Origin: Desulfovibrionaceae bacterium
Lineage (GTDB): Bacteria; Desulfobacterota; Desulfovibrionia; Desulfovibrionales; Desulfovibrionaceae
Assembly: GCA_031082225.1 (NCBI GenBank)
Contig: JAVHLG010000006.1
Coordinates: forward strand, 16,467-80,466
Reading direction: 5' to 3'
Length of the DNA stretch: 64,000 nt
Position numbers and translations under genes: made by a program. Every line of letters begins with the position of its first letter. The first letter of the stretch is position 1. This document shows, piece after piece, positions 2,429-44,189 of this stretch. The notes below the pieces were generated by a model. It did not search any database. It was not told the DNA's origin and worked only from the letters and a program-made list of their open reading frames with translations.

Positions 2429-3061
2429 CTATTCAAACGGCAGAATGGTTGCTTTCCCATTCCCGCCACGTCGAATGAAAACGCCGCTACGGCTAACGGA
2501 GGCCACCACGCCTCCGTCAAATCGATCTCCTGGACGCAGTGTCACCAACTCTGATCCCTGGCGAACGATGGCTCTGGCGTGTCCATCAAGACCCTGAACA
2601 GACAAGACGACCGGTCCCGAAGGCGGCGGAGCTGCTGAGGATTTCGGGGGAGCTTCTGCTTCGGAAGGAAGCGATGAGGCGGAATGGGGCGCTGCCACCA
2701 CCACAGGGGCCTTTGGGTTCAGCTTTTCGGCCTCGGCGGCAATGGCGGACTTGAGGCGTATCTCCTCTAGTTCCGCTCGGAGGGCGGTAAGCCCCTCCAG
2801 GTTCCCAGCCACAGGCACTGGAACGGGTTCACGATGAGGGTTGGAGGTGGCCGGTGCCGATGCCTGTCGGCTTCCGGGCCCGGCTTCGCTGGATGATACC
2901 GAGGCAGGTACAGAAAGCGCCGAGCTCGGGGCCGGGGGCAAATGAGGAGATGGAGGAGACGACGTCAGGTGCTCCATGGCCATGGAGGTCATGTAGATAA
3001 GCGGCGGTAAAGCCAAACTGCCGCAGATGATCCAGAAAAGCTTTTTATTCCGGATTTGCAT
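2429..3061 (-). CDS. pilP: Type IVb pilus biogenesis protein PilP-like
   Basis: I trimmed the start to the ATG at 3061 (MQIRNKKLFWIICGSLALPPLIY). The protein has one N-terminal TM segment and a Pro/Ser-rich middle. The C-terminus VLSVQGLDGHARAIVRQGSELVTLRPGDRFDGGVVASV is PilP-like. Its position between pilO and pilQ supports the call. Confidence 0.6.
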   Translation of the reverse strand: MQIRNKKLFWIICGSLALPPLIYMTSMAMEHLTSSPPSPHLPPAPSSALSVPASVSSSEAGPGSRQASAPATSNPHREPVPVPVAGNLEGLTALRAELEEIRLKSAIAAEAEKLNPKAPVVVAAPHSASSLPSEAEAPPKSSAAPPPSGPVVLSVQGLDGHARAIVRQGSELVTLRPGDRFDGGVVASVSRSGVFIRRGGNGKATILPFE

Positions 3062-4304
3062 AGACAACCCCCTTAAGGCTCCATCGGCCTTCTTTGTCCT
3101 GGAAAATTTGTTCGAGAATGAGGCCCGGCAACCCAGTAAATGCCTCGGGAAATGATTGATCGAGAATGATAGCAGCGGGTACGTCACTGAGTTCCCATTG
3201 CCCGCGCTGCCATGGACTTATGATCTCGATCCCTTCTATCGATTTGCGCTCAGGGGAGTGCCAGGACAACTTCAGTCGGCCGCCGATGACCTGCGTTGAC
3301 TGATAGAGCCGCTGTGACGCAGTTTCTCGCATGAACAAAGCATCACCCTGAAGCTGATGGATCTGGGGGATTGCAATCTTAGTGACCGCCTTTTGGGGCG
3401 TTTCGAGGCTCGCGCTTGGAGGGAGGCGGATATAGTCGGCACCCGGCCTGTGCCCCCAGGAAGCGGAAATTTGGTTTGTTTTGGAATCGTAGGCGGCGCC
3501 CTCGATAACCCAGCCGCTGGCCACCGTCGGCAGCGAGAGCATGACCGGAATTATGGCCTGGAGAGTTGAGCGGACATCACTCGCTTCCCGCCAGGGCCGT
3601 GGAAAATGCACTTCAGGGTGAGCCTGGATTTCACGTCGCCGCTGTTCTTTGTTCAGCATGGCCGTGCGGGCAGCTTCCTTGGCCTGAGAGGCGGCGCGTT
3701 GATCGAAAAACAGTTTCAGACCGTAGCCACCCAGAAAGAGAATCCCGAGCGCCGCTGCGATGACGATTCGGTTGCGGCGTTGACTCGGAACCGGATGCAA
3801 AGGATGTAAGGAGCCACGGCGGCGACTCGGCAATGCGAAAGGGAGCGACGGAACGAACGGCGATAACCAGTTCAGGCTGTCAACGGGCGTCTCGCAGGTC
3901 ACCGTTTCCTCAAAATCGGCATCCATGAGCCCACGCAGGGATTTGATCCACGATTCGGCTTCAATCTGTGATGTGAACGCTTGATCACCCATTCCAAGGA
4001 TAAGCCCCTGGGCGGAAGCAAATACCCACCAATACGGACCAGTCTCATCCTCCAGGCAGAACAGACCAAGAAACGAGGGTGAGGGCACCTGGAGAGCGGC
4101 AGCGAGGGCGCGGCGTCCACGCCAGGGTCGAATGTCGCCGCCGGACGAGCCAAATCCGTACTGACGCTGACGGAACACAACCATATCAAACGACTCATCA
4201 TGGCGAGCCTCTTGACGAAGCTCTGAGGTCTTTAATTTGCGGTTGCTCAAAAACCACTGAATGCCAACCGCATATTTTCGATTATGCAATGTGATAGAGC
4301 GCAT
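3045..4304 (-). CDS. pilO: Type IVb pilus biogenesis protein PilO-like
   Basis: 419-aa ORF with one central TM segment (IVIAAALGILFLGGYGLKLFF). It sits between the secretin and pilP. The N-terminus MRSITLHNRKYAVGIQWF resembles ICE/R64 PilO. Confidence 0.6.
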   Translation of the reverse strand: MRSITLHNRKYAVGIQWFLSNRKLKTSELRQEARHDESFDMVVFRQRQYGFGSSGGDIRPWRGRRALAAALQVPSPSFLGLFCLEDETGPYWWVFASAQGLILGMGDQAFTSQIEAESWIKSLRGLMDADFEETVTCETPVDSLNWLSPFVPSLPFALPSRRRGSLHPLHPVPSQRRNRIVIAAALGILFLGGYGLKLFFDQRAASQAKEAARTAMLNKEQRRREIQAHPEVHFPRPWREASDVRSTLQAIIPVMLSLPTVASGWVIEGAAYDSKTNQISASWGHRPGADYIRLPPSASLETPQKAVTKIAIPQIHQLQGDALFMRETASQRLYQSTQVIGGRLKLSWHSPERKSIEGIEIISPWQRGQWELSDVPAAIILDQSFPEAFTGLPGLILEQIFQDKEGRWSLKGVVYANPE

Positions 4305-4305: not shown

Positions 4306-5889
4306 TTAAACCTCAGCTGATTCGACTGCGATAGTGATGATAAGCAAGGTTCTGTCGGTATTGGTTTTCCTGAACGTGTTGAGAATGCCGACGCTTTTTT
4401 GAATGTCGCGCATTTCTTTTTCGAATCCTGTCAGAACTAGCGTTTGGCCCATTTTCATGGTTGTACGTTGTGAGAAAGCCCGTGTTGATACCTGTGGCAG
4501 TTGGACAGTGATATCACTGGTTGTGAATTCCTTCATTTCATCAAGGGCAGACAAGTTGATATTGTAATGAAGAACAACTCGACGCTGATCCAGGATGTGG
4601 GGGATAACAGTCATGCTAAATCCCGTCGTCACTTCGCCTGGAGTCACCTCCGTGGTCTGCCCGAATTCGCTTTGCGACATCCCCATGCCGGCTAGGTATG
4701 CGGTGCGTTCGATGGCCATGGCCGGGACCGGCTGGTTGCTCATGCAGATGCCTCCGGCAGAAGTAACCTGAGTGGCGTTACCCCACTGTCGGAGCGCTTT
4801 AAGAATTGCCGACGAATCCTTGAGGGTGCCGGATACGATACTTGCGGTCACACTGTTGAGGTCGCCAGACGCCACATTGCCTGTAAATTGAATGTTGCCG
4901 TCTGCAAACATCGACGACACCGAGACACCGATGTCGGAATTGTCATTGACGCTGAGGGACCAGACCTGGATTTTGAGCGCAATCTGGCGCGAAAGTCTTG
5001 TGTTGACGTCGTCAACATAGGTGGTGACTCTGCGGATGATGTCCGGAGCATCGCGGACGGTAATAGTGCCAGCGGCTGGGTTGCTGACAACCGTTCCTTG
5101 TGGAGAGAGCAAGGCTTTGATGGCTGACTCTGTGTCGCTCCAAATGTCAAATTCCCAGGACACGGTGTTTGATTGAGCGTTTTGCGACGATGTATCGGCG
5201 ATAGAGACAGTTTGAGCCGTGCTTCCGATCCCACGCGATCCTGATGAGTCCTTGCTTTTGTTTGTCAGTTGGTTTTCGTAAGTGACCTTCCCTGGAGCAC
5301 CAATGATCGAAAAGGTGCGCACCAACATTTTGGCGAACAGAATGCCTTCGTTCTGGTCATGGTCCCAACCGTATCCGGAGAGCATGGCCACGTGATCCAA
5401 AAGGCCGCGTACGGTCCCTTCGTATGAGATGCTGAGGCCACCGCTGGTGGCGCTCGACACGCCGGCAGAGGGCACCTGGAGCAGGGCCTCCAGATCCATA
5501 TTGATCCCATCCGCCGGCGGCGCGGCGTCGGGATGCGGTTGGGCCGGATGCTTCGGAGCTTTGCCCGGTGCAGTTACGACTGGGGCGCCAGAATCAGTCG
5601 CCACCTGGACAGGGATGCCGAGCAGCGAGCTGATTTCGCTGGCAATCGCAGGGAGCGACCCTTTTGTCCTCAGCGTAACGTGTTTGTTGAGGATCGGATG
5701 CGACATCGGCCCCATGGGGATGGACGTTGCCCCCAGATACGACTCTTCGACAACGTCAACAGTTCGTGGGCGTGACTGTGCCTGAAAAGAGTCGGCTTTT
5801 TCCTCTACGGCCTGCATCATTTTTATGGATTTAGGGTTCGGAGAACATGACATAAGAAGCAAAATAAGAATGATGAATATACGATGCAT
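4306..5889 (-). CDS. pilN: Secretin lipoprotein PilN (type IVb pilus secretin)
   Basis: I set the start at the ATG at 5889 (MHRIFIILILLLMSCSPNP, with a lipobox). The track start at 5907 is a TTG. The secretin-type C-terminal domain reads GQTLVLTGFEKEMRDIQKSVGILNTF...TLLIITI. Confidence 0.8.
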   Translation of the reverse strand: MHRIFIILILLLMSCSPNPKSIKMMQAVEEKADSFQAQSRPRTVDVVEESYLGATSIPMGPMSHPILNKHVTLRTKGSLPAIASEISSLLGIPVQVATDSGAPVVTAPGKAPKHPAQPHPDAAPPADGINMDLEALLQVPSAGVSSATSGGLSISYEGTVRGLLDHVAMLSGYGWDHDQNEGILFAKMLVRTFSIIGAPGKVTYENQLTNKSKDSSGSRGIGSTAQTVSIADTSSQNAQSNTVSWEFDIWSDTESAIKALLSPQGTVVSNPAAGTITVRDAPDIIRRVTTYVDDVNTRLSRQIALKIQVWSLSVNDNSDIGVSVSSMFADGNIQFTGNVASGDLNSVTASIVSGTLKDSSAILKALRQWGNATQVTSAGGICMSNQPVPAMAIERTAYLAGMGMSQSEFGQTTEVTPGEVTTGFSMTVIPHILDQRRVVLHYNINLSALDEMKEFTTSDITVQLPQVSTRAFSQRTTMKMGQTLVLTGFEKEMRDIQKSVGILNTFRKTNTDRTLLIITIAVESAEV

Positions 5890-5893
5890 TGTT

Positions 5894-7045
5894 TTAATCC
5901 TCGGCAACCTCTAAAACATGGTTTCCCTGGTACACTGTGACTCTCAGTGCATGTCCGTTGTTATGGAGGCCACGAAATAGCTGTTTTACAGCGTTCACGA
6001 AGTCGCAATGAAATTGCGATGCGGCAGACATTTCGTAGTCGTTTTTTGACTTCCATATGAGCTTGTACCGGGCACGGCTCGTCCATTCTTCAAGTTGGGT
6101 CAACAGACTGCCTGGCTCGATGCCCCATGTCTCGGCCGGATCGGCCGGGGGGGGCGTTTCTGGTGGGACGGGAACGGGCTCCGGAGCTGGTGTGGACGGC
6201 GACGGGGCCGAGGCCTGCGCCGCAGGTGACGGCGTCTGCTCGGGGAGAGAGGCCGGGGCTTCTTTGTGCAGGTATGGCGACTGGCTCTGCGTGCCCTGGG
6301 CCACCGGGGCAGGAGGAGTCACGGCAGGCGATGTGGCCGGTGCAGCCTCAAGCGACGATGCCAAAACGGGTGGAGTCACTTTCGCGGTGTCCACCGGCGG
6401 AAGCTGCTGAAGGACGGGGGTAACCGCAGGCATGAGCTCCGGAGCTGGTGCGGCCGGCGGCAGGGCTGGGGCTTGCCCTGTGGCAGGCTGCGTCGGTCCG
6501 GACGACGAGGCCGGAGCCTGGGGGGCGGCATCGGGCAGCGTGTAGGACTCAGGAGCCGCCGCAGGAGAGCTCTGTTGGGCATGAAAAGGCTCATCGAGAG
6601 GTGCTGGTGCCTGACGGGTCGATTTCGCTCCAAGGCGGCGCGTCGTACCAAATCCAACGCCGTCCGAGGTTCTCACCTGCAGGTAGCAGACCGAGGGCGT
6701 AGTCTCCTGCACGATGTCGAGAGTGTACGCCACCAGGATACCGGGAGACTCGGGAGTAGCCGGCGCAGACACGGCAAACCCTCGTCCTCTGAGGGCGGAT
6801 TCGAAGTCGGTCCCAAAATACGTGTCGGTCTGCACCAGGGCCAGGGTGGTACCCCCTGGAGGGAATTTCTGGGCAAGGGTGTCGGCGGCCTGGTCGGCCA
6901 AAGCCCGGCCATCGTCCGGATAGTCCTGGCTCATTCCGTCATAGGCAGACAGAGCCAGACCTCCGGAGCCCCGATGTTGATGGACGCAACCAGCACCCCC
7001 AAAAAGGAGGACTACACTCACAGTAATGAAGATGATACGTGCCAT
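5894..7045 (-). CDS. Fusion lipoprotein: TrbH-like N-domain, Pro/Ala-rich linker, PilL/TcpQ-like C-domain
   Basis: The lipobox is LLFGGAGC. The N-terminal ~140 aa (ALADQAADTLAQKFPPGGTTLALVQTDTYFGTDFESALRGRGFAV...LVAYTLD) follow the TrbH pattern. The linker of about 160 aa is P/A/S-rich. The C-terminal ~80 aa (WGIEPGSLLTQLEEWTSRARYKLIWKSKNDYEM...AVKQLF...VYQGNHVLEV) follow the TcpQ/PilL pattern. Confidence 0.65.
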   Translation of the reverse strand: MARIIFITVSVVLLFGGAGCVHQHRGSGGLALSAYDGMSQDYPDDGRALADQAADTLAQKFPPGGTTLALVQTDTYFGTDFESALRGRGFAVSAPATPESPGILVAYTLDIVQETTPSVCYLQVRTSDGVGFGTTRRLGAKSTRQAPAPLDEPFHAQQSSPAAAPESYTLPDAAPQAPASSSGPTQPATGQAPALPPAAPAPELMPAVTPVLQQLPPVDTAKVTPPVLASSLEAAPATSPAVTPPAPVAQGTQSQSPYLHKEAPASLPEQTPSPAAQASAPSPSTPAPEPVPVPPETPPPADPAETWGIEPGSLLTQLEEWTSRARYKLIWKSKNDYEMSAASQFHCDFVNAVKQLFRGLHNNGHALRVTVYQGNHVLEVAED

Positions 7046-7047
7046 GG

Positions 7048-8064
7048 CTACTGTTTCCGTATGGTGATGCGTTGTTGCTTGCTCCCGACGCCGGAAATCA
7101 AAATCGCCTCGGGGAAAACACCGTCAACGATCATGCTCGATTCTTTCATCCGAAAATTTGCCATGGTGTCCTCGCCACCGTTACGGACAAGGAGAACCGG
7201 CGCGTCGCCGGATTGGATTGAGGGCGGAAAATTGATGAACATCTGTTTTCCGTCATCATAGACCTGAAGCGGTTTCCAGGACGTTTTGCCCTTGATGTCG
7301 TAGGCGAAGTTGAGCGTGCTTGGGTCCGAGGCGGGTTCCAGGGACTTCATTTGCTGCTCTTTCTCTCTGGCGTCTTTGGCCACGGAAAGTTTTTCTCGAA
7401 GACTTGATCCGCCAAGCCCCGAGCCACCATCGGGGTAGAGGAATCCCACATAGGGGGTCAGACCGGTGCGTTGGCTAATGAGCTTGAGGTGGTAAACCCG
7501 ACGATCCGTGGTGATGACGGCGCTGGTCATGAGCCCCGCGTCCATGGGCTTAAGTAGAACATGAGTGGTGTCGCCGGATTTGGCGGTATCAGCGATCCAC
7601 CGGGCTGAATCGCCAATCACGACCTCGTTGATATTTTCCCCCGGCTGGAGTTCGATGTCGCAGATCAGATGCGGGACGCCGATGACGGTCGGGTACGACG
7701 CACCGTAGGTGTACATGATCTTGCCGTTGGCCTGGATCGGTGGCGCGCCTTGCGCCTCCCAGGAAGCGGCCAGATTGATCGCGTGGCGTTCCTTGGCCGT
7801 CAGGGGGACTGCGGTTCGGCTCAGATAATCCGCTGGTGGCAACGGGTCAGAGACCCTGCCCCCTTTGGACAGCAGGGAATCCAGATGGTCCAAATTGTCG
7901 GGACGCGCACTCTCGGCGGAGGGGAGCGGGGGCTGCCCAACCGTCTGTGTGGCCGGGGCCGTCTTGGCCTGGGTCTGGGCCAGGCCGGGACTAGGTGTTT
8001 GCTGCGCCTCCGCCGAAAACGGAAGCGAAAGTGCCAGGGCCAACGTGATTAATAACTTGTTCAT
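7048..8064 (-). CDS. trbG: P-type conjugative transfer protein TrbG (VirB9 family)
   Basis: I trimmed the start to the ATG at 8064 (MNKLLITLALALSLPFSAEA signal peptide). Conserved TrbG/VirB9 stretches are ITTDRRVYHLKL, YVGFLYP and QMFINFP. Confidence 0.85.
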   Translation of the reverse strand: MNKLLITLALALSLPFSAEAQQTPSPGLAQTQAKTAPATQTVGQPPLPSAESARPDNLDHLDSLLSKGGRVSDPLPPADYLSRTAVPLTAKERHAINLAASWEAQGAPPIQANGKIMYTYGASYPTVIGVPHLICDIELQPGENINEVVIGDSARWIADTAKSGDTTHVLLKPMDAGLMTSAVITTDRRVYHLKLISQRTGLTPYVGFLYPDGGSGLGGSSLREKLSVAKDAREKEQQMKSLEPASDPSTLNFAYDIKGKTSWKPLQVYDDGKQMFINFPPSIQSGDAPVLLVRNGGEDTMANFRMKESSMIVDGVFPEAILISGVGSKQQRITIRKQ

Positions 8065-8072
8065 CGTGAGTC

Positions 8073-8780
8073 CTATCGCTTGGGTTCCATGATGGTGGAC
8101 GAGGACATGGAAATGACGAAGACGCCTCCCGGATTGCGCAAGATTGCGGAATCCGTTGTGGGCGGCTCGATTTGGACAGCCAGTGTCGCTTGGAACGTCC
8201 CTTGGTTCATCAGGACGCCGGTGTGATTCCGAGTTGTTTCGACCCATTCCACGCGCCACGAATTGGCGCTCACCGGCGACGGCAGTGATTTGATGTCCAC
8301 CTGGACGAGCAAATTCTTGGCGCGCTCATAGGGGTTATTCGCCACAAACCATTCGCGGAGTTCCCCTTTGGCCGCGCCGGCCACGGAAAATTGCAGCCGC
8401 TCCAGCATCCGTTTTTGGAGGTCGAGGTCTGCTGTGACCGTTCTCCAGTTGACGACGAAGTTGGACAATTCCGCCTGGATGACGCGGGTAGGTGTGGCTG
8501 ATGGCACAGATGCTCGATCAACGGCTTTGATGTTGCCGAGGTTGTCTACGGCGACAACATAGGGAACAACCTTGTTTTGCGTTGCCTGGATCACGTTGCC
8601 GCCTACAGCGATAACCGTGACACTGAGGCATATAATTGCTACCCACATCCATCGTCTCTCACGCTGTATGTAACTCCCGTATCGCTCAAGCCATTCCTCG
8701 CGGCCTCGCACGTAAGAGGATTTTTCGGTATCAGGCCGTTGAGCTTCAAAAGCTGCCTTTGTTCGAGATTTCCAAAGCAT
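8073..8780 (-). CDS. trbF: Conjugal transfer protein TrbF (VirB8 family)
   Basis: 235 aa with a single TM segment (WMWVAIICLSVTVIAVGGNVI). The VPYVVAVDNLG motif and NTF2-like C-domain are typical of TrbF/VirB8. Confidence 0.85.
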   Translation of the reverse strand: MLWKSRTKAAFEAQRPDTEKSSYVRGREEWLERYGSYIQRERRWMWVAIICLSVTVIAVGGNVIQATQNKVVPYVVAVDNLGNIKAVDRASVPSATPTRVIQAELSNFVVNWRTVTADLDLQKRMLERLQFSVAGAAKGELREWFVANNPYERAKNLLVQVDIKSLPSPVSANSWRVEWVETTRNHTGVLMNQGTFQATLAVQIEPPTTDSAILRNPGGVFVISMSSSTIMEPKR

Positions 8781-8789
8781 GAGATTCTC

Positions 8790-9032
8790 CTATGAGGGTT
8801 GCTTGAAACCGGTGAGAGCTCCGGCGCGAAGCAGTCGCAGCTTTTGTATTTCCTTGCGCATCTCCGTGAGACTTGCGGACTCGCGCAATGATTTCAGTCT
8901 GCATTTCACAGCATCGACCTTGAAGAAGAGAAAATCCATCTCAGTTTGAAGATCTTCGAGCTGTTCAAGAAGACATTCAAAATCAAGATCACTTTTTTCC
9001 ATGTCCAAAACTTCACCTGGGTTTGTGCTCAT
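8790..9032 (-). CDS. Small acidic coiled-coil hypothetical protein
   Basis: 80-aa ORF between trbL and trbF, with heptad-like LEQLEDLQTEMD...LKSLRES...IQKLRLL. I recognise no family. Confidence 0.4.
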   Translation of the reverse strand: MSTNPGEVLDMEKSDLDFECLLEQLEDLQTEMDFLFFKVDAVKCRLKSLRESASLTEMRKEIQKLRLLRAGALTGFKQPS

Positions 9033-9232
9033 TGGAGTTCAAAATGGAACATCGTCCATCCCCTCCGTATCCGGCGGGGAGGCTGGATCAAACTCTTCAG
9101 CCGAAGGACCGGATTCCGCTTGTTTCTATTGGCCGCCTTTCGAGTAGCTGGATGTATGCGCGGGGGCCGCGTTATCATCGTCTTTTCGTTCTTTAGGCCT
9201 TTCGGTTTTGCAATATTTCGTTCTTTCGTTCT

Positions 9233-10447
9233 TTACGCCTTCCCTCCACCTCCGGATTCACCCGCACTTCCTCCACTGGAGTCTCCGGAACTACCTTTCG
9301 GCTGAGGCGGATTCATCTTCATCTCCTGCAGGCGTGATTTCAGGTGGACACCCATACTTTCAGTGTGCGAAAATTTTCCCTGCGGCTGCTGACGCGCAGC
9401 TTGGTGGCCATCCCACATGGCCCGGGCCGTTGAGGCGACCCGGCCCATGCCTGACTTCCCGGCGGCCCCTGCCACCTGGGAAGCGGTACCGAGGTTTCTG
9501 GCGGTCTGGATCGCCCCCATGGCCCCTCCCACGGCTCCACCCACGGCCCCGCCGACCATGCCGCCCGCCATGCTGGCCAAGCCGCTGCCACTGCTGCTCA
9601 CGTTGGAGCCGGAGATGATCCCGGATGCGATGCCGGGCACTTCCTTGGTCAGGAGCAGGAGGATCAGAACAGCCGCGACGTTGGCCACCAGATCAGCGAT
9701 GGAGAGACTGCCCGTTGACATGCTGCTGATGAACTGCACCCCGATCCCGGCGACGAGGGTCATGACCAGGAGTTTGAACCCGGTAGCAAAGACGTAGCGG
9801 ATGACGTTCACAGCATAGTCCTTGAAGAGCGTGCTCCCGCCCAATCCCATAAGAAGAACGGCCGCTGCAACGCCGATGTAGGCCTCACATTTCGCGAGAA
9901 TTATCATCCCAGTAATCAGGGCAAAGCAAATCAAAGCGATTGCGCATAGGACAATGATGATGAGACCTTTTATTGGCTCCCATCCGGAAAAGCTTTCAAA
10001 GGCAGATACAACCATATTTACACCTATCTCGACGGGGTCTTCAACATTGAACGACGGAGATACATCCCCTGCCAAGGCTGGGACCCCTTTTATTATTCCG
10101 TTTGTCCAGGATTCGTAATTTTCTATGCACCAAAGGAAAAAACCAATCATGAGCAGCATCATGATAAACTGCTTAATGATATTTGGGATGTCGTCTCGAT
10201 TGAGTGCGACATTTACCCCGAGCATGGCTACGCTCAGCATGGCGGACCATCCAAAGAGCTTCATGGCCACCTTCTTCAATGGTTCGATCCATTGTTGTGT
10301 GGCTTGTTCATATTTGCCGACAATCTGGCCGATAATTGTTGCTCCTCCAGTTTGAGCATAAGATTTTTCTTGCATGGCGCACACTATTGTTGCAATAATA
10401 ACTGAAACAACAACAAAGGAGATGGTAATGCGAGTGATGTCTTTCAT
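9233..10447 (-). CDS. trbL: P-type conjugative transfer protein TrbL (VirB6 family)
   Basis: I trimmed the start to the ATG at 10447 (MKDITRITISFVVVSVIIATIVCA). The protein has multiple TM segments and a Gly-rich tail (GGMVGGAVGGAVGGAMG) typical of TrbL. Confidence 0.85.
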   Translation of the reverse strand: MKDITRITISFVVVSVIIATIVCAMQEKSYAQTGGATIIGQIVGKYEQATQQWIEPLKKVAMKLFGWSAMLSVAMLGVNVALNRDDIPNIIKQFIMMLLMIGFFLWCIENYESWTNGIIKGVPALAGDVSPSFNVEDPVEIGVNMVVSAFESFSGWEPIKGLIIIVLCAIALICFALITGMIILAKCEAYIGVAAAVLLMGLGGSTLFKDYAVNVIRYVFATGFKLLVMTLVAGIGVQFISSMSTGSLSIADLVANVAAVLILLLLTKEVPGIASGIISGSNVSSSGSGLASMAGGMVGGAVGGAVGGAMGAIQTARNLGTASQVAGAAGKSGMGRVASTARAMWDGHQAARQQPQGKFSHTESMGVHLKSRLQEMKMNPPQPKGSSGDSSGGSAGESGGGGKA

Positions 10448-10664
10448 GCTTATTTCTCTGCTTGTCTTTATGATTTCTGCATGCAGCGATTCATCAAAGA
10501 TTGATGATCTGACTAAGGAAAACGCCGCTCTTGCAACAGAACTCAAAGAATGCCGTGAAGCTGCAAAAAAGACAGCTCTGCGGGAAGAAGATAATAAAAA
10601 AGAAGCAGAAGCGTTTAAACGCGTCAAAGAGGAGTTAAAAAACATGAATAAAACACCTTTTTAA
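10428..10664 (+). CDS. Small lipoprotein encoded antisense in the trbJ-trbL gap (trbK position)
   Basis: An AAGGAG Shine-Dalgarno lies 6 nt before the ATG at 10428. The N-terminus is MRVMSFMLISLLVFMISAC, with a lipobox ISAC. The mature part is about 60 aa, charged and helical. The last 27 aa are about 70% identical to the TrbJ C-terminus. Confidence 0.55.
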   Translation: MRVMSFMLISLLVFMISACSDSSKIDDLTKENAALATELKECREAAKKTALREEDNKKEAEAFKRVKEELKNMNKTPF

Positions 10665-11461
10665 AATTGTGTCTTGTTCATGTTGCTTAGTTCGTTTTTA
10701 ACTCGTTGAAATGCCTCTATCTCTTTTGCGTTTTCTTCATCTTTGATTTGTTGTCTCTTGCTGTCCTCTGCCATTTTTTGAACGTCAGCCTGGGCAGAAA
10801 CAGCAAGGAGCTGCCTGAGTTTTTGCATCTCATGGAGTTGCATGCCAGCGAGTTGGTTGCCCGCCTGAATGGCCTGCATCTGTCCCTCAGGCGTATCCAG
10901 AAGGTCGTTGAGTTGGGAATCCAGCTCAGCGGCCTTCTCTTCCAATTCTTGGATTTGCTGCCCCGACACCTGGATGGCCGCCTTTTGGGCGCGATCCCCA
11001 TCGTCCGACATCTTGGAGTACATCTCGCGGTATTGGCTCGCCGCGTTGGCCGACCGGGCAATGTCCATGATGCCCGTTCGGCCGGTGTAGACCTGATCAA
11101 AGATCTGGCTCAGTCCCTCCACATCGCCACGCAACGTGTCCAGACTGCGGGTGAGGGACATCAACCTGTTGAATTCACCTTGGAGTTTGCTTTTGATTTG
11201 TCCTGGCAGGCTGACCGTGTTTTTGATCATGTTCTCTAATTGATCGAACGTGTTTGTGACCATCTGTATCTGTTGCTGCGTTTGTTCGATGGCTTCGCTG
11301 ACCTGAGTATAAAGCTCTTGGAGCTGGGATAGATTCGTTATCCTGTCCAGGGCCTGAGTGACCCATTCAGAGCAGTTTGTGCAGTGAACCACCCACTGTG
11401 CATGTGCAGATGTGCTCATCAGGATCATTGCCAGCATGAAAATGACGCGAAGAGATTTCAT
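10661..11461 (-). CDS. trbJ: P-type conjugative transfer protein TrbJ (VirB5-like)
   Basis: I set the start at the ATG at 11461, which has a GGAG 6 nt upstream. The track start at 11473 is a TTG. The signal peptide is MKSLRVIFMLAMILMSTSAHA. The coiled-coil TrbJ pattern is WVVHCTNCSEWVTQALDRITNLSQLQELY. Confidence 0.85.
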   Translation of the reverse strand: MKSLRVIFMLAMILMSTSAHAQWVVHCTNCSEWVTQALDRITNLSQLQELYTQVSEAIEQTQQQIQMVTNTFDQLENMIKNTVSLPGQIKSKLQGEFNRLMSLTRSLDTLRGDVEGLSQIFDQVYTGRTGIMDIARSANAASQYREMYSKMSDDGDRAQKAAIQVSGQQIQELEEKAAELDSQLNDLLDTPEGQMQAIQAGNQLAGMQLHEMQKLRQLLAVSAQADVQKMAEDSKRQQIKDEENAKEIEAFQRVKNELSNMNKTQF

Positions 11462-11482
11462 GGTTTTCTCCAATACGCTTTG

Positions 11483-13891
11483 TTATGACGCACGTTCACG
11501 AAGCCATTCCATTTGCCATGTCTCTCCATGAGAGACTTCAAGCTCTTTTATCCTGGAGATGCTATCAGGATCACTTACACCAACGAACGCCAGAGTCTCT
11601 TTCTGTAACGCTAATTGTATAAGCCTGCGTCCGTTCGGAGTATCCATGTAATAATCACGCTTTGGTGTAGCTGAGGCAATGATTTCAATCTGTCGGTCAT
11701 TTAAACCGAATTTTTTGTACATATCTGCGCGAGTCTCTTGCCGTGCCGTCAGGTCGGCCAAATAAATTTTTGTCGGACACGATTCGACAATGACGTCCAT
11801 GATTCCTGAACTGGCAACGTCAGTAATGCTTTGGGTGGCCAGGATGACAGCGCAGTTCTTTTTGCGCATGACCTTCAATTGTTCTTTGATTTTGGCCTTG
11901 GCAACGGGATCGGCAAACATCACCCAGGCCTCATCGAATATGATGAAACCAGGTTGGCCATGCAGGGATCGCTCGATGTAGCGAAACAGGTAGAGCAGGA
12001 CAGGAATGATATTCTTTGGGCCAAAAGCCATAAGTTCTTCGATTTCAAAGACCATGAAACGTGATATTCCAAAGGAATCCTCGGAAGCGTCGAGCAGGCT
12101 GCCCATGGCTCCTTCAATGGTATAGTGCGTCAGCCCTTCCTTGATACGGTGATCCTGCACCGCGTCCTTGAAATGCGACAGGCTCCGGAACTCCTTCGAG
12201 TCGGCACGGAGCTGGACCATGGCGTTGTGGATGGCCGCACGGTTGCCGGGCGTGACCGTGGTCCCCTGGAGCTCAAGGAGCGTTGCGATCCATTCCTCGG
12301 CCCAGGACATGTCGGCGGGGTCGTCGATGTGGGCCAGGGGCGCGAAGGACAGGGCTTTGCCCGTGCCGATCTCGTAATGGGCGCCGCCGCACCCCTTGCA
12401 GGCGGCGTACATGCTCATGCCCTTGTCAAAGGCAAAAATCTGGGCGTTCGCGTATCTCCGGGTCTGAACGGCGATGAGCGCCAAAAGGGTGGACTTGCCG
12501 GAGCCGGTCGGGCCAAGAATCGCGGTGTGCCCCAGGTCGCGTACATGCAGGTTGAACCAAAACGGCGTGGAACCGTCTGTGGTGCAGACCATCAGCGGCG
12601 GTGAATGCTCTGGATAGAACGGGCACGGGCAGAATTGTTCGCCCGTCCACACGCTGGACAGGGGAAGCAGGTCTGCCAGGTTGAGGGTGTTGAGGATCGG
12701 CCGGCGCAGGTTCGCAAACCAGTTGCCAGGATGCGTCCCGAGCCAGGCTTCCACAGCATTGATGCGCTCAAAGCGGCAGCCGAAACCGAGACTGAGGATC
12801 AGGCGGCGCAGCTCACGTGCCCAGTCGCGTAGAAGTTCCCTGTTGTCGTGCTGGAGGACGATGCACGACGTCAGGAATCCCGCTCCCACGCGGCCGCCCT
12901 GGACGTCCACGAGCGCCTGTTCGGCGTCCTCGACCATCAGGGCCGCGTCACGGTTGGCACGGGCGTTGGGGTTGTTGAAAAACTTGTCGATGAATCGGAA
13001 TACCTTCTGCTGCCAGCCTTTCCGGAAGCTGTTGATTTCCTTGGTAGCTTCCAGTTGGTCCATGCAGATGAACCGGGTGGAATACCGATATTGAAGTTTG
13101 AGGCCGTCCAGGGCCGCCAGCATGGCGGGCCAAGATTCTTGCGGAAAACCGTCAATGCCCAGAACCGCAATGTGTTGTTCACCAACCCTGGGAGCGAGCC
13201 CCGCGATGAAATCGTCGGAGCCCAGGAGGGCATCCAGATACATCGGGATTTTGGGGACACGTACTGGCTGTTCCATCCCGGTGATGCAATGCTGAATATG
13301 AGAGAGCAAAGAACTGTACAAATGTTCTGTGCCGTCATCGTCAACGATGCTGTAATCGTTGAGACGGCGTAGTTTAAGGATTGATGATAGCGCGTCATCC
13401 AGTTCAGAGATGGTGTTTTGAAACGCGTTGATCGCCCGTTCCAGGGCGTTGGATTGCTGCATTCCGGTTTGCGCCAAAGATGAAACCCTGTCACTGCCGA
13501 ATGGAATTTTATAACTCAGGAGAATGACGGTTTTTGTCCGGAAACAGACATCATCACTGAAGAATTTCCGGCGCTCATCGTCGATAAGCTGCGAAACATG
13601 ATCCGGAAAGTGGCTGGCCTCGCGCGGAGGATAGGCGTGGTAGTTCGTCCGGACGGCATCCACCTGGATCATCCAGCCGGAGCCAAGAAGTCTCACGGCG
13701 CTGTTGAACTGCATGGAGACGTAGGCGAGTTCGTCTTCCGTGGAACTGGCCGTGTCCTGGCCCCGGGCTGTGAATCCAGCGATAAGCGTGCCGTCTTTGC
13801 AAAGGACCACGCCCGGCGCGCAAAGGACGGCATAGGGCAGTAAATCCGAAAAACCGCGCTTCTGCGTCCGGAAGTTTCGCAGGTTGAGCAT
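11483..13891 (-). CDS. trbE: Conjugal transfer ATPase TrbE (VirB4 family)
   Basis: 802 aa with the Walker A GPTGSGKSTLL and the Walker B IIFDEAW. Confidence 0.92.
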   Translation of the reverse strand: MLNLRNFRTQKRGFSDLLPYAVLCAPGVVLCKDGTLIAGFTARGQDTASSTEDELAYVSMQFNSAVRLLGSGWMIQVDAVRTNYHAYPPREASHFPDHVSQLIDDERRKFFSDDVCFRTKTVILLSYKIPFGSDRVSSLAQTGMQQSNALERAINAFQNTISELDDALSSILKLRRLNDYSIVDDDGTEHLYSSLLSHIQHCITGMEQPVRVPKIPMYLDALLGSDDFIAGLAPRVGEQHIAVLGIDGFPQESWPAMLAALDGLKLQYRYSTRFICMDQLEATKEINSFRKGWQQKVFRFIDKFFNNPNARANRDAALMVEDAEQALVDVQGGRVGAGFLTSCIVLQHDNRELLRDWARELRRLILSLGFGCRFERINAVEAWLGTHPGNWFANLRRPILNTLNLADLLPLSSVWTGEQFCPCPFYPEHSPPLMVCTTDGSTPFWFNLHVRDLGHTAILGPTGSGKSTLLALIAVQTRRYANAQIFAFDKGMSMYAACKGCGGAHYEIGTGKALSFAPLAHIDDPADMSWAEEWIATLLELQGTTVTPGNRAAIHNAMVQLRADSKEFRSLSHFKDAVQDHRIKEGLTHYTIEGAMGSLLDASEDSFGISRFMVFEIEELMAFGPKNIIPVLLYLFRYIERSLHGQPGFIIFDEAWVMFADPVAKAKIKEQLKVMRKKNCAVILATQSITDVASSGIMDVIVESCPTKIYLADLTARQETRADMYKKFGLNDRQIEIIASATPKRDYYMDTPNGRRLIQLALQKETLAFVGVSDPDSISRIKELEVSHGETWQMEWLRERAS

Positions 13892-14169
13892 CAGTTCTTT
13901 CTCCAGATGCCGGATTTCGCGGGATACATGATCTGGAGCCGCATGTGACGAAACCAGATCTTGCTCATGATCGGATCGGCCTTGGCCATTTTCCTGAGCA
14001 CAAACGTGGTCATGATGTAGAAGAGAACGGCGACGAGCCCGGAAATCAGGGTGAACCCTCCGACGCCGACCAGAAAGGAGAACAAGACGTTCAGCAGCAC
14101 AAGCTCGCGCTCCGCACCCATGACATGGTTGTGCCGGTGCAACGACTGGAAGATAGGATATGCTCGCAT
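13891..14169 (-). CDS. trbD: Conjugal transfer protein TrbD (VirB3 family)
   Basis: 92 aa with two TM segments, located between trbC and trbE. The pattern IFQSLHRHNHVMGAERELV resembles TrbD. Confidence 0.8.
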   Translation of the reverse strand: MRAYPIFQSLHRHNHVMGAERELVLLNVLFSFLVGVGGFTLISGLVAVLFYIMTTFVLRKMAKADPIMSKIWFRHMRLQIMYPAKSGIWRKN

Positions 14170-14179
14170 ACGTTAACTC

Positions 14180-14500
14180 CTAAAGGACCGCGCCCGAGAA
14201 CGAGAACAGACCTTCTACGATCGCAGACGCGAACGCGATGAAGCTGATCCCGAAGACGACGCCGAGGAGCAGCTTGAAGCCGCCCGACAAGTCGTCCTTG
14301 TTGAAGATGTAGACGACTCCGCACAGGGCCATGGCCGTGATCGAAATCCATTTTCCGGCAGGGCCGGTGATCGTGCCCACCACCTTTTCAAGAGGCGTGG
14401 CGAACTGCTCGATCCCACCCGAGGCGAACGCCTGGGGGCAGAAAATCAGAGTCAGGAACAGACAAAAGGGCACCTGTTTGGCAAAGCTCACCAGTCGCAT
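14180..14500 (-). CDS. trbC: Conjugative pilin TrbC (VirB2 family)
   Basis: 106 aa with a long signal peptide and two hydrophobic helices. It is in the canonical position after trbB. Confidence 0.8.
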   Translation of the reverse strand: MRLVSFAKQVPFCLFLTLIFCPQAFASGGIEQFATPLEKVVGTITGPAGKWISITAMALCGVVYIFNKDDLSGGFKLLLGVVFGISFIAFASAIVEGLFSFSGAVL

Positions 14501-15543
14501 TATGCAGCCTCCTCAAGCTTGTATTGTTTCCACCACTGCTCTTCTTTCACTTTCGCATTGTGATAGCGATAAATGAACTCCGTATCGTACTCTTGCTTCG
14601 ATTCGTCATACCCATGCACTTTCATTACTTCGGTTACACGCCTCCCTTCTTCAGTTTTTGCGATAAAAATGATGATATCCACAGCCTGGCCAATCAACGA
14701 TTGCATCGGAGACGAGACGCGTTCGGCAACGAGGTCGCGTAAACGTTGGAAAGTCTCGAACGCGCTGTTGGAGTGCAGCGTCCCCAGGCCCCCGTCATGG
14801 CCGGTATTCCACGATTTCAGCAGATCATGAGCGGAGCCGTCGCGGACTTCGCCGACAATGATGCGGTCGGGGCGCAGCCGGAGCGTGGTTTTGAGCAGTT
14901 TGCCGTGATTCGTGTGGTCGGTGGTTCGAAACTCCACCCGGTTGGCGCTGGTCACCATGAGTTCGCGTGTGTCCTCTATGGTAACGATCCGGTCGTGCGG
15001 ACAAAGCCGCGAGATGGTCTCGATGAGGCTGTTGGTGAGCGTGGTCTTTCCGGAGCCGGTCCCGCCGGCCACCAGGATGTTTTGACGCCGTTCTATGGCA
15101 GCCTCGAAGAAGTTCTTGAGCCCGGCCGGGAAGACTCGAGCGCTCACGTATTCGTCCAAAGTGAAAACCTTGGACGCCTTTTTGCGGATTGCGAAGGCAG
15201 GCCCGGCCACAATGGGCGCGTCCATGCCCTCGAAGCGGGAGCCGTCCAAGGGGAACTCCCCTTCGACCACGGGCTCTTCACGGGTGATGACGGTATTTAG
15301 GGCGGCGGCCACCAGGGAGATGATCCGGCGGCCCTTGTAGGTGTCGATCCGGCCGACGTTCTCCATGGGTCGACCGAACCGTTCGATCCAGAGATTCCCG
15401 TCCGGATTGAGCATGATCTCCAGAACCTCCGGGTCCTGGAGCGCGGCCAGGGCCGTCTCACCCAGGGAGGCCCGCAGGCTGACCAAGCGTTTCTCATGGA
15501 CCTGGCGTTCCGCGTCGGTGGCAAAGGCGGTGGTCTGGTTCAT
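14500..15543 (-). CDS. trbB: Conjugal transfer ATPase TrbB (VirB11 family)
   Basis: I trimmed the start to the ATG at 15543, which overlaps the stop of the upstream ORF (MNQTTAFATDAERQ...). The Walker A is GGTGSGKTT. The motifs IVGEVRD and GHDGGLGTLHSN are typical of VirB11/TrbB. Confidence 0.9.
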   Translation of the reverse strand: MNQTTAFATDAERQVHEKRLVSLRASLGETALAALQDPEVLEIMLNPDGNLWIERFGRPMENVGRIDTYKGRRIISLVAAALNTVITREEPVVEGEFPLDGSRFEGMDAPIVAGPAFAIRKKASKVFTLDEYVSARVFPAGLKNFFEAAIERRQNILVAGGTGSGKTTLTNSLIETISRLCPHDRIVTIEDTRELMVTSANRVEFRTTDHTNHGKLLKTTLRLRPDRIIVGEVRDGSAHDLLKSWNTGHDGGLGTLHSNSAFETFQRLRDLVAERVSSPMQSLIGQAVDIIIFIAKTEEGRRVTEVMKVHGYDESKQEYDTEFIYRYHNAKVKEEQWWKQYKLEEAA

Positions 15544-15980
15544 CAGTGCCCTACGTTGCTCAGGATGACGGCCAGGACGTTTGCCAGGGACATGGCCACT
15601 ACGATGATGGTGAGCCAGCGCATGTTGCTCTGGTATGTCCCGAGACTTTTGTTGCAGCTTTGAAATATAGCTTTGACCTCGGATACAGATGACTGCGAGA
15701 TACCTTTGGTGAGGGTGTCGGCAGCCTGTTTGGCTTGCTCCAAGTATTTCGATCCCTCGCCGTTCAGATACGCAGAGAATCCTTCGCGGTGCTTCGCCGC
15801 GAATGCATCGAACGCTCCCATGTAGGCGTTGAGAATCAAAACCAGGAGGCACAACGGATCATCCCTGTCGATGGAGACGCCAGCCGCGCGGTGCAGGATG
15901 GCTCTGACCTCGTCGATGCTCAGGCCAATTCCTGACTCTGGCACAGACATGGGGGATTCCGTGGTTTCCGAATTGTTCAC
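15543..15980 (-). CDS. Hypothetical protein with a C-terminal TM anchor (traM position)
   Basis: 145-aa ORF with tight overlaps to both neighbours. The C-terminal TM segment is WLTIIVVAMSLANVLAVIL. No motif is recognised, so only the position after the traL-like gene suggests a leader-operon protein. Confidence 0.5.
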   Translation of the reverse strand: MNNSETTESPMSVPESGIGLSIDEVRAILHRAAGVSIDRDDPLCLLVLILNAYMGAFDAFAAKHREGFSAYLNGEGSKYLEQAKQAADTLTKGISQSSVSEVKAIFQSCNKSLGTYQSNMRWLTIIVVAMSLANVLAVILSNVGH

Positions 15981-20345: not shown

Positions 20346-20421
20346 TGGCGTCCCCAAGGGGGTTTGAACCCCTGTTCCCGGCGTGAGAGGCCGACGTCCT
20401 AGGCCACTAGACGATGGGGAC
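20346..20421 (-). tRNA. tRNA-Glu, anticodon CUC
   Basis: The reverse complement GTCCCCATCGTCTAGTGGCCTAGGACGTCGGCCTCTCACGCCGGGAACAGGGGTTCAAACCCCCTTGGGGACGCCA folds as a cloverleaf. The anticodon loop is CUCUCAC and the CCA end is encoded. Confidence 0.9.
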
Positions 20422-20426
20422 GCATA

Positions 20427-20502
20427 TGGTGGGCCGTGCTGGGATCGAACCAGCGACTCTCTGCTTAAAAGGCAGATACTCTACCGCCTGAGTTAACGGC
20501 CC
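20427..20502 (-). tRNA. tRNA-Lys, anticodon UUU
   Basis: The reverse complement GGGCCGTTAACTCAGGCGGTAGAGTATCTGCCTTTTAAGCAGAGAGTCGCTGGTTCGATCCCAGCACGGCCCACCA folds as a cloverleaf. The anticodon loop is CUUUUAA and the CCA end is encoded. Confidence 0.9.
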
Positions 20503-40215: not shown

Positions 40216-42423
40216 ATGACACACAGACCCGTGCTCGGCGTGCTCGTCTCCACCCTGGCCGTCGGCGGGGCCGAGCAACTCCTTTTGGAGCTGTTGCGCC
40301 GCCTGGACCAGGGCCGCTTCGAGCCGCGCCTGTACTGTCTGCGGGAACCCGGCCCCATCGGACAGGAGATCGCGGCCCTGGGCGTCCCGGTCAGGTCCGG
40401 CCTGGGGGGCGGACCTCTGCGTACCATATGCCGCCTGCGCCGGGTCTTTCGCCAGGACCGCCTGGACGCCCTTTTGCTCATCAACCACCGCAACTGCCTG
40501 TTTTACGGCCTGCCCGCCGCCCGGCTGGCCGGGGTGCGGGCCGTCGTCAACTGGCAAAACGAGACCTTCAAGCGACACAGCCACCACGAACTCTACATGC
40601 TCGCCCGCCGGGGCGTGGTCTGGGGCCTGGACGCCCTGACGGCGGCCTCCAGGGGCCATGCCGGATACCTCGTGACGGTGGAGGGCGTGCCGGTGCGCAA
40701 GGTGCTGGCCATCCAAAACGGCGTGGATGCGGCGGCCTTTCGCTCGGAATTGTCGCCACAAGAGGCCCGGCGGCGTCTTGGCCTCCCCGGGGACGCGCCC
40801 ACCGTCGGGATCATCGCCGCCCTGCGCCCGGACAAGGCCCACGAGGTGTTTTTGCAGGCCGCTGCCCAGGTGACGGCCGTGGCCGCTGCCCGAATGACAG
40901 CCGTGGCCGCCGCCGTCCGCTTCCTGGTCGTCGGCGACGGGCCACAGCGCGCCTTCCTGGAGGACTTGGCCGACCGGCTGGGCCTTGGCGGCCAGGTGCG
41001 GTTTCTGGGATTTCGACGCGACGTGCCCGACATCCTGGCCGCCCTGGATCTGGCTGTTTTGTCCTCCGACCCCCAGCAGGAGACCCTGTCCGTGGCCGCC
41101 CTGGAGGCCATGGCCGCCGGGGTGCCCATGGTCGCCACAAGGGTGGGCTTTATGGACGAGATTGTCCGCGACGGGGTGACCGGCCGTCTGGTTCCGCCCC
41201 GCGATCCCGAGGCCCTGGCCGGGGCCATGCTGGACCTTCTTGGCGACGACGCGGCGCGGCGGGAGATGGGACGCCGGGCCAGGGCCCTGGTGGGCCAGGG
41301 CCACACGCTTTCGGGCATGGCCCGGGGCTTCGAGAATCTTTTCACCGAGATTTTGGCCGGACGGCCGCCACGGCAAAACCTGTGCCCCCTGTCCCAGCGG
41401 CGGGTGAGCCTTGGGCTGTACTGGGCCGAGACGGGACAGTGGCGGCTTCTGCACCTGCTGCGTCGGGATCTGGCCGCCGTGGAATATGTCCGTCTGGGCG
41501 ACCGCACCCGACGCGTCCTGGCCCGGCTGGGCCGCCTGTCGGCCTGGGCCTCGGCCGCGTGTCTGGCCGTGAAGCAGGTCGCGCGCGCCTGGCGAAGCGA
41601 CGCGGTCCTGTCCTGGGCCCTGCCCCTTGGGGTCTGCACCGGGCTTCTTTTGCGGTTTGTGCCGCCCCGGTTGCGGCCGGTCCATGTGCTCCGGGACTTC
41701 CACCTGAACCTCTCCCGCACGGACGCGGCCTACCGCCTGCGGCTGGCCGTGTTGCGCCTGGCCCTGCCCGGCATCGACGCCCTGTGGTGCACCTCCGAGG
41801 CGGAGCGCACGCTCTACGCCGACATGCTCGGGCTGCCCGAGACGGCCGTGTCCTTTTATCCGGACGAGCCGCCCAGCCAGTACCTGGAACTGCCGGACGT
41901 TCCGTGCCAGGGGTATGTCTTTGCCTACGGCAACAGCGACCGGGATTTCGAGAGCCTTGTGGCCGTGGCCGATGCAATTGGCCGGGAGGTGGTGATCCTG
42001 AGCCAGTCCTTCGCCTTCCCCGAGCCCCTGCCCGCCAATGTGCGGGCCATGCGCTCCAGGGTGTCCGAGGCGGAGATGGTGGGGCTTTTGCAGGCCGCGG
42101 CCGTGGTGGTGGTGCCCACCAGGGACCGCCGTCTGGCCGCAGGGCAAAACGGGCTGTTGGAGTCCATGGCCCTGGGGCGGCCGGTGGTGGCGGCGGCCAA
42201 TGTGGCGGTTTTGGAATACGCCGGGCACGGGGAGGAGGCGCTTTTCTACGAGCCCGGGGATCGGGAAGGCCTGCTGCAGGCGGTGCGGGCCGTGCTGGAC
42301 GATCCGGACGAAGCCCGGGAGATGGGACGGCGGGCCCGGGAGCGGTGTCGCCGGATGCTGGCCGAGCAACCGTTCCGGTTTCTGGCCCTGTTATCCAAAG
42401 CGATCCGGCTGGCGGGGAAGTGA
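40216..42423 (+). CDS. Two-domain glycosyltransferase: an N-terminal GT4 unit plus a second GT-B-like C-terminal unit
   Basis: The N-terminal half has VLVSTLAVGGAEQLL and ETLSVAALEAMAAGVPMVATRVG. The C-terminal half has GQNGLLESMALGRPVVAAANVAVLEY. Confidence 0.8.
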   Translation: MTHRPVLGVLVSTLAVGGAEQLLLELLRRLDQGRFEPRLYCLREPGPIGQEIAALGVPVRSGLGGGPLRTICRLRRVFRQDRLDALLLINHRNCLFYGLPAARLAGVRAVVNWQNETFKRHSHHELYMLARRGVVWGLDALTAASRGHAGYLVTVEGVPVRKVLAIQNGVDAAAFRSELSPQEARRRLGLPGDAPTVGIIAALRPDKAHEVFLQAAAQVTAVAAARMTAVAAAVRFLVVGDGPQRAFLEDLADRLGLGGQVRFLGFRRDVPDILAALDLAVLSSDPQQETLSVAALEAMAAGVPMVATRVGFMDEIVRDGVTGRLVPPRDPEALAGAMLDLLGDDAARREMGRRARALVGQGHTLSGMARGFENLFTEILAGRPPRQNLCPLSQRRVSLGLYWAETGQWRLLHLLRRDLAAVEYVRLGDRTRRVLARLGRLSAWASAACLAVKQVARAWRSDAVLSWALPLGVCTGLLLRFVPPRLRPVHVLRDFHLNLSRTDAAYRLRLAVLRLALPGIDALWCTSEAERTLYADMLGLPETAVSFYPDEPPSQYLELPDVPCQGYVFAYGNSDRDFESLVAVADAIGREVVILSQSFAFPEPLPANVRAMRSRVSEAEMVGLLQAAAVVVVPTRDRRLAAGQNGLLESMALGRPVVAAANVAVLEYAGHGEEALFYEPGDREGLLQAVRAVLDDPDEAREMGRRARERCRRMLAEQPFRFLALLSKAIRLAGK

Positions 42424-42431
42424 TCTAGCAG
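42091..42431 (+). repeat. Direct repeat, left copy (3' end of the glycosyltransferase gene)
   Basis: This 341-bp stretch is repeated at 44374-44714, an offset of 2283 nt. I see only three A/G differences in the coding part, all at synonymous third positions (GAA/GAG, CAA/CAG, AAA/AAG). Confidence 0.9.
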
Positions 42432-42678
42432 GACAGATCACTGTACAAATAGTAACAGTTTCCTGACTCCTTGCTGGACTCGTTTGCAGTTGTATACTCT
42501 TGCAATAATTCCTAACAAGAATTATTTTTCAGGATGTATCCCATGTCTGCAATGAAATAGAAGTATTTTCAAATGGTTGATATTAGTATTCGTACCAGAC
42601 GGTGTCATTTAGACTAACGTATGTCCGGGTCGGCACATATGGTGCTCAAGACGAATCATAAAAAAACGGCCACTTAAT

Positions 42679-43692: not shown

Positions 43693-44189
43693 TGTAATGC
43701 TCCACAAACAAGCATGCACTTCATTTGGCAGAAAGCAGTGTTTTTAAGCCATTGCTTGGTGGCCACGACCGCAATATAATGCCTATCTATTTTTGGAACG
43801 CGACACTAGTGTCGTATCCTTGAAATACGCATGTGCGGATTTCTAAAATAAAAGTCTGAAACTATTGTTTATTTCAAAAACTGGCATTTTTCAAGTGGCG
43901 TGACACTAGCGCGTGAGCCCCCCTATACCTGAGAGGCCGTAGCAACCGGAAAGAGGATGCGTAGGTTCTCCACTCATTGCCAAGCAAAAAGACGAACCAT
44001 GCGCTTTTTTGGTTGCATTTTCCTGTTGTTCATATTGGTTCCTGGTGCCCGGTTGGATTTCCCACTAGCCTCGTCTTCGGACAAAATTCGGGATAAACGG
44101 CCCCTAAAGGAGAAGCCCCGATGAAAGTGACGGCGTGTCCGGATCGGACATGCCGGGGACGCTGGCGTTTTCGGGCCGCATCCGCCGCC

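Follow-up and report, generated by a model that had tools for sequence, protein, structure and literature searches.

A Desulfovibrionaceae conjugative element encodes a lipoprotein that joins a TrbH-like module to a TcpQ/PilL domain and probably serves two machines

We analysed a 64,000-nucleotide stretch of DNA from a Desulfovibrionaceae bacterium (assembly GCA_031082225.1, contig JAVHLG010000006.1, positions 16,467 to 80,466; the whole stretch is called the window below) that carries part of an integrative conjugative element of the Trb type (mating-pair formation type T, MPF_T) from a Desulfovibrio-like host. The minus-strand gene at 5894..7045 of the window encodes a single lipoprotein in which a TrbH-like module of the conjugative type IV secretion system (T4SS) is joined, through a disordered linker, to a TcpQ/PilL domain of the kind found in type IVb pilus clusters. 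The N-terminal module is the only TrbH of the element, and the C-terminal module is its only TcpQ/BfpG/PilL-type N0-like domain. The gene fusion is real and conserved, and we consider it likely that one outer-membrane lipoprotein serves both the T4SS and the type IVb pilus.

The fusion reading frame runs uninterrupted for 383 codons plus a stop from 7045 to 5894 on the minus strand; the trbG stop codon lies 2 nt before its ATG, its TAA lies 4 nt ahead of the pilN ATG at 5889, and a GAGGA within its last codons fits in position a ribosome-binding site for pilN. The protein begins with MARIIFITVSVVLLFGGAGC, which we read as a signal peptide ending in a lipobox (amino acids (aa) 1–20, 6986..7045, ...LLFGGAGC, with Cys20 presumed to be lipidated); this is the sole hydrophobic, signal-like segment in the protein, and the lipobox Cys is kept in at least 90% of homologs. 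It is followed by the TrbH-like module (aa 21–140, 6626..6985), which consists of a tail with the conserved motif D-G-x-S..YP.D and then an alpha/beta domain, by the linker (aa 141–305, 6131..6625), and by the TcpQ/PilL domain (aa 306–383, 5897..6130), a BfpG homolog with an N0-like fold; these assignments come from the translation and from Pfam and NCBIfam matches. The 165-aa linker is 26% Pro, 21% Ala, 10% Ser, 8% Thr and 8% Gln, and aa 149–285 have predicted local confidence (pLDDT) values below 50 and no secondary structure in a full-length AlphaFold2 model. An earlier note on this DNA had placed a lipoprotein reading frame at 5894–7045, at the junction of T4SS and pilus genes, had described its N-terminal ~140 aa as TrbH-like, its last ~80 aa as TcpQ/PilL-like and the part between as a Pro/Ala/Ser-rich linker of ~160 aa, and had proposed a structure prediction. 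Its testable sequence claims held up: the lipobox Cys is present in a protein of 383 aa, trbG lies directly upstream and pilN directly downstream, the linker measures 165 aa, and AlphaFold2 gives two folded ends with a disordered linker between them. That description left out the strand, which is the minus strand.

The TrbH-like half scores below the curated thresholds for its family: Pfam TrbH (PF07283) matches it at E = 0.0074 with 17 bits against a gathering cut-off of 22.5, and the NCBIfam TrbH models match at E = 2.4e-5 and 1.6e-4 (24.3 bits against a full-length cut-off of 160). An hhalign comparison of the N-module profile with TrbH of the IncP plasmid R751 nevertheless gives 96.8% probability and E = 2.3e-10 over 97 columns, and the two have in common the motifs ...LA..A...LA..Y.P.RT.L.L....FGQ.L...LR..G[FY]...Y.LD. 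A word-index profile search with the N-module missed the fusions themselves and returned two proteins, both of them lipoproteins that stand alone: P0018, of 164 aa, matches at 49% identity and E = 2.6e-39, and P0019, of 160 aa, at E = 3.6e-16. In loci L002–L004, whose canonical operons (trbB-C-D-E-J-L-F-G-H-I) have no pil genes, the gene for P0019 is flanked directly by trbG and trbI. Stand-alone TrbH proteins of the Desulfovibrio type, identified by such a position, score 19.6–20.9 bits and thus also fall under the Pfam cut-off, so the lineage as a whole is divergent from the Pfam seed. The conserved positions of the N-module in 99 fusion clusters match those of eight stand-alone TrbH relatives. 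The AlphaFold2 model of the module (pLDDT 84, pTM 0.78) has an alpha-beta-alpha arrangement followed by four strands; a fold search with it against the PDB found nothing at E < 0.04, and the weak matches (LptE, the TolB N-terminal domain, GNA1162 and HPRT) have TM-scores of only 0.3–0.4, which makes a fold assignment impossible. The N-module profile likewise had no match among PDB sequences. Judged by its sequence, the module is a divergent TrbH, a protein that a review (PMC12624023) names as the counterpart of VirB7 in the outer-membrane core complex.

The other half of the protein is recognised directly. Residues 306–382 match Pfam TcpQ (PF10671) at E = 7.9e-17 and 61.5 bits against a cut-off of 27, the fusion-family profile matches PDB 9u5s chain R (BfpG) at E = 1e-9, and the AlphaFold2 model of the domain (pLDDT 85–94) aligns with that chain in Foldseek with a probability of 1.00, a TM-score of 0.68 and a root-mean-square deviation of 2.8 Å over 81 columns. 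The next gene, pilN (4306..5889, minus strand), encodes a 527-aa lipoprotein-type secretin of type IVb pili (lipobox LLMSC; TIGR02520 PilN and Secretin matches; a 527-aa gene is also called in L045), and its product is a homolog of BfpB (9u5s chain A, E = 9e-36). BfpG is a TcpQ homolog with an N0-like fold, it is not a lipoprotein, it binds the N-terminal LG region of its lipoprotein-type secretin around the N3 ring in the solved 17:17 BfpB–BfpG complex, and it is needed for pilus biogenesis (PMC12531336). By analogy with that complex, the C-terminal domain of the fusion is expected to bind PilN. We also considered an internal start codon that would yield a separately exported C-domain and rejected it, as the fusion sequence contains no second signal-like segment; having no signal peptide of its own, the C-domain can reach the periplasm only as part of the fusion.

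Both domains are present in all 17 homologs found by word index (35–80% identity). An exhaustive profile search of 1.84 billion 50%-identity cluster representatives gave 116 matches at E≤1e-30, and the best 150 clusters comprise about 99 in which the N- and C-modules are fused, 17 LysM-TcpQ, 26 TcpQ only and 10 N-module only. A scan of one genome per species found 24 loci, nearly all in Desulfovibrionaceae (including Bilophila, D. falkowii and D. piger) and most of them with the fusion architecture. Named members of the fusion family come from Desulfovibrio, Solidesulfovibrio, Halodesulfovibrio and Maridesulfovibrio, where the annotation is solely "TcpQ domain-containing protein". The linker ranges from 32 to 305 aa across the fusions, always with the frame kept. 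When the fusion was compared by tblastn with 72,556 plasmids (PLSDB), 20 records were hit through the TcpQ domain only and the N-module was never matched, and the stand-alone TrbH P0019 had no match in the same collection.

Many relatives carry a peptidoglycan-binding LysM segment between the two domains (43 of the ~99 fusion clusters among the best 150; in P0004 it occupies aa 197–241 and scores 21.5 bits against a cut-off of 20.9). A Pfam scan found no LysM match in the window protein, and the segment has been cleanly lost from this protein and its two closest relatives; LysM-TcpQ proteins without a TrbH module also exist.

The genes around the fusion place it at the meeting point of the two systems. 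The minus-strand order in the window is trbB-C-D-E-J-L-F-G, the fusion, and pilN-O-P-Q-R, where the window edge cuts pilR. Two related loci, L045 (with an identical fusion) and L001 (77% identical), continue with pilR-S-T-M-V and then trbI, and in this order trbH and trbI flank a complete R64-type thin-pilus cluster whose first gene is fused to trbH; the pil cluster that separates the fusion from trbI is 9 kb long. Other gene orders occur: L015 has trbF-G-I, a gap of ~6 kb and then the fusion and pil genes, L018 and L022 have trbF-I-x-G followed by the fusion and pil genes, and D. falkowii (L014/L032), Bilophila and others have trbB-C-D, the fusion, pilN through pilV, a lytic-transglycosylase-like gene and possible insertion sequence (IS), and then trbE-J-L-...-F-G-I. 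In every gene order, wherever pilN is on the fetched contig, the fusion is immediately upstream of it. Hidden Markov model scans found exactly one TrbH-like and one TcpQ-like domain in each element examined, both in the fusion. Where the fusion is remote from trbG, trbG abuts or overlaps trbI (3022/3030 in L015, 15211/15208 in L032), which leaves no room for a trbH there.

Some loci show variants of these arrangements. In D. falkowii L032 the region 4578–6439, between pilV and trbE, contains by eye a lytic-transglycosylase-like reading frame and a possible transposase reading frame on the opposite strand. Variant or decayed forms are also present in these genomes: L030 encodes at 6998–7377, directly after a ParA gene, a PilL of ~125 aa that consists of a lipobox and TcpQ only; L026 has pil fragments as part of a remnant that lies between trbB and trbE; and L023 encodes at 9440–10492 a TcpQ protein with an unrelated N-terminus.

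Comparison of the closest loci indicates how the fusion moves. Along a tract of 10.6 kb (window from ~7311 to 1, L045 9735–20285, L001 9735–20292), the DNA of the window and of L045 matches that of L001 at 90–92% identity, and the flanking trb genes are only 65–75% identical. The tract starts ~265 nt before the trbG stop codon (window ~7311) and ends exactly at the pilV/trbI junction, and from these breakpoints the unit that moved consists of the last ~88 aa of TrbG, the fusion and pilN through pilV. Such breakpoints mark the fusion and pil genes as a cassette that is exchanged between diverged Trb backbones. The TrbG segment inside the moved unit is the part whose identity follows that of the TrbH module (Pearson r = 0.82 among 16 elements, a figure without phylogenetic correction); for TrbG residues 100–250 the corresponding uncorrected value is r = 0.36, which is no tracking. 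In known systems a VirB7-class protein caps VirB9/TrbG in the T4SS outer-membrane core complex. In VirB systems it is the C-terminal domain of VirB9 that binds VirB7 (PMC3093366), and the co-variation is consistent with a retained contact between TrbH and TrbG.

We therefore favour, as said above, one outer-membrane lipoprotein that works in two machines, and the following steps describe how it could do so. The TrbH signal peptide and lipobox would export and anchor the entire chain; the TrbH end would dock onto the C-terminal domain of TrbG in the T4SS core complex, a binding that the sequence comparisons suggest; and the 165-aa spacer would allow the TcpQ end to extend down as far as the PilN ring. 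Having both ends in one polypeptide would probably couple the amounts and positions of the two machines, so that the mating pilus emerges beside the DNA-transfer channel. That a single molecule binds TrbG and PilN at the same time, and is thus a true tether of the kind that the earlier note had put forward, is quite possible, though we stop short of calling it probable: the data fit a stable tether no better than two ends that act one after the other or independently, or a chain that is cut once exported. A still bolder arrangement, which we put forward only tentatively, is a molecular staple in which ~14 copies of the fusion in the T4SS outer-membrane core complex simultaneously hold a PilN secretin ring alongside and thereby form a twin-pore conjugation super-complex. 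If that were true, a retractile mating pilus and a DNA-transfer channel would be assembled as one unit, and the gene order, with the pil genes nested in the trb operon, would be a record of that joint assembly.

Several observations weigh against a lipoprotein shared by the two machines. At least one relative, L030, has a short PilL with no TrbH part, from which it follows that the TcpQ end can work without one. The fusion gene travels with pilN and not with trbG, and it is at least 6 kb from trbG both in L015 and where it lies between trbD and trbE. The TrbG–TrbH co-variation figures lack a phylogenetic correction, and TrbH modules with 90% identity work next to TrbG proteins whose overall identity is only 61%. 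The N-module is under the curated Pfam and NCBIfam cut-offs for TrbH and has no significant solved relative in its fold, and the span of linker lengths, from 32 to 305 aa, means that no fixed spacing is conserved.

Some of these same points would be expected if the protein were simply a PilL, in which a module derived from TrbH has been co-opted as a lipid anchor and spacer and has lost its role in the T4SS. The gene is always beside pilN and moves with the pil cassette between backbones and operon positions, and a canonical PilL (as in L005) is also a lipoprotein with a long region before its C-terminal TcpQ domain. The thin pili of R64 are dispensable for conjugation on solid surfaces. This explanation implies a T4SS that either has no VirB7-like lipoprotein or has one that was not recognised; however, no other TrbH-like protein was found in any element checked, and the relatives that have no pil genes keep a stand-alone TrbH. 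Moreover, the module keeps all TrbH-conserved positions across 99 clusters and co-varies with the C-terminal segment of TrbG, and we regard the loss of its T4SS role as unlikely.

Cleavage of the exposed linker after export and lipidation would also do away with a tether, as it would release a TrbH lipoprotein and a soluble periplasmic TcpQ-like protein from one precursor. The linker is a long, disordered stretch that proteases can reach, its length and content are unconstrained, and BfpG, the solved counterpart of the C-domain, is not a lipoprotein (PMC12531336). Against this, no conserved cleavage motif is present in the linker among the word-index homologs, and the PilL-type proteins of L005 and L030 are themselves anchored, with the TcpQ domain at the far end. 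Such a separation of the two halves seems to us quite improbable.

In Xanthomonas citri, VirB7 consists of a VirB7 motif and a C-terminal N0 domain that decorates the T4SS core complex (PMC3093366), and BfpG and TcpQ resemble that N0 domain in structure (PMC12531336), so that the N0-like domain of the fusion might in the same way form an additional ring on the core complex of the T4SS, without any link to PilN. We find this very unlikely because the domain belongs to the TcpQ family (61.5 bits) and by sequence to that of BfpG, because it is the sole TcpQ-type protein of the pil cluster, and because elements without pil genes have a TrbH that lacks it; in addition, the fusion gene always abuts pilN, and the 50 best fold matches include no VirB7 of X. 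citri.

Finally, a frameshift or assembly error that merges two genes, the alternative named in the earlier note, can be set aside with near certainty: the survey that the note had suggested finds the fusion in ~99 of the best 150 clusters, in all 17 word-index homologs, in most of the 24 loci and in several Desulfovibrionales genera, an identical product is called on the independent contig L045, linkers of variable length are always in frame, and the C-domain has no start codon of its own that is followed by a signal peptide.

The remaining genes of the two clusters in the window are all on the minus strand. Upstream of the fusion, trbG (7048..8064; the VirB9 equivalent, 338 aa, with an ATG at 8064 and its own signal peptide) was identified by CagX and TrbG_Ti matches and the L045 gene call, and the other Trb T4SS genes occupy 8073..15852 (trbF 8073–8780, trbL, a trbJ-like gene, trbE 11483–13891, trbD, trbC and trbB; Pfam and L045 gene calls). 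Downstream of pilN, Pfam and NCBIfam matches identify pilO (3045–4304), pilP (~2429–3067), the ATPase gene pilQ (876–2423) and pilR, which runs off the window at position 1 and was read from the edge translation. The starts in the list of reading frames are over-extended for 4306–5907, 7048–8259 and 14500–15852, and according to the L045 gene calls the likely starts are 5889 for pilN, 8064 for trbG and near 15543 for trbB (347 aa). TrbL has a long Gly/Ser/Ala-rich C-terminal end (its tail lies at window 9233–~9560) and, of all the backbone proteins, varies most from one related element to another (33–38% identity).

Genes for tRNA-Glu(ctc) and tRNA-Lys(ttt) lie at window 20346–20502, where the G+C content climbs from ~0.47–0.60 in the island to 0.63–0.72 in the chromosome, and it is here that the element probably ends and has its attachment region. 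Farther on, G+C is low (0.51–0.57) at 42–46 kb and there is a strong AT skew (0.24–0.26) at 46–50 kb, in surrounding chromosome of ~0.65–0.72 G+C; the patch at 42001–50000 could represent a further island or a gene of unusual composition.

A literature search for a TrbH–PilL/TcpQ fusion, or for trb operons with nested pil genes in Desulfovibrionales, returned nothing relevant. Each half of the protein is a known family, and X. citri VirB7 with its N0 domain is a loose precedent for the addition of an N0-type domain to a VirB7-class lipoprotein, but the combination of TrbH with TcpQ seems to be undescribed, although it is common in one bacterial order, where it has gone unannotated. The usual view takes conjugative T4SSs and the type IVb mating pili that accompany them to be distinct machines that do no more than cooperate. 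With the sole VirB7-class and the sole TcpQ-class component in one polypeptide, spatial and stoichiometric coordination of T4SS and pilus becomes directly testable, and the fusion hints that the DNA-transfer channel and the mating-pilus pore are built side by side. Our analysis also documents a group of Desulfovibrionales mobile elements, several of them from gut or faecal metagenome assemblies (e.g., Bilophila and D. piger), in which the pil cassette is nested at different points of the trb operon and exchanged between backbones, and it corrects the annotation "TcpQ domain-containing protein" for these proteins.

How does the fusion compare with its counterparts in known systems? Like TrbH of the IncP plasmids RP4 and R751 (PF07283), it has a lipobox, the TrbH motifs, a gene that in the window lies directly after trbG, and a sole copy in the operon. 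IncP TrbH, however, is a stand-alone protein of ~160 aa, whereas the fusion carries 243 further residues that end in TcpQ; its gene is not followed by trbI, from which the 9-kb pil cluster separates it; and its N-module, like the stand-alone TrbH proteins of the Desulfovibrio type, is sub-threshold for the curated TrbH models. With PilL of R64-type clusters and with TcpQ, BfpG, CofC and LngC it shares the TcpQ domain, the BfpG-like N0 fold and a gene directly before that of a lipoprotein-type secretin, and with its PilL-type relatives it shares a lipoprotein architecture in which a long region precedes the terminal TcpQ domain. It differs from soluble BfpG in being a lipoprotein, and from the canonical PilL proteins that we compared, which have no TrbH part (L005 and L006; the Nitratidesulfovibrio plasmid pDsulf-L2-2 and a Salmonella plasmid), in that its anchor is a T4SS component. 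X. citri VirB7 (XAC2622) is, like the fusion, a VirB7-class T4SS lipoprotein with a C-terminal N0-type domain; the two have no sequence match, XAC2622 is absent from the top-50 fold matches, and its N0 domain directly follows the VirB9-binding tail and decorates the T4SS, whereas the TcpQ domain of the fusion is set off by 165 aa and shares its gene cluster with a pilus secretin. The IncI1 plasmid R64 and pDsulf-L2-2 have the same set of pil genes beside their conjugation genes, but there the T4SS is Dot/Icm-like, the pil cluster is a separate block and PilL is unfused.

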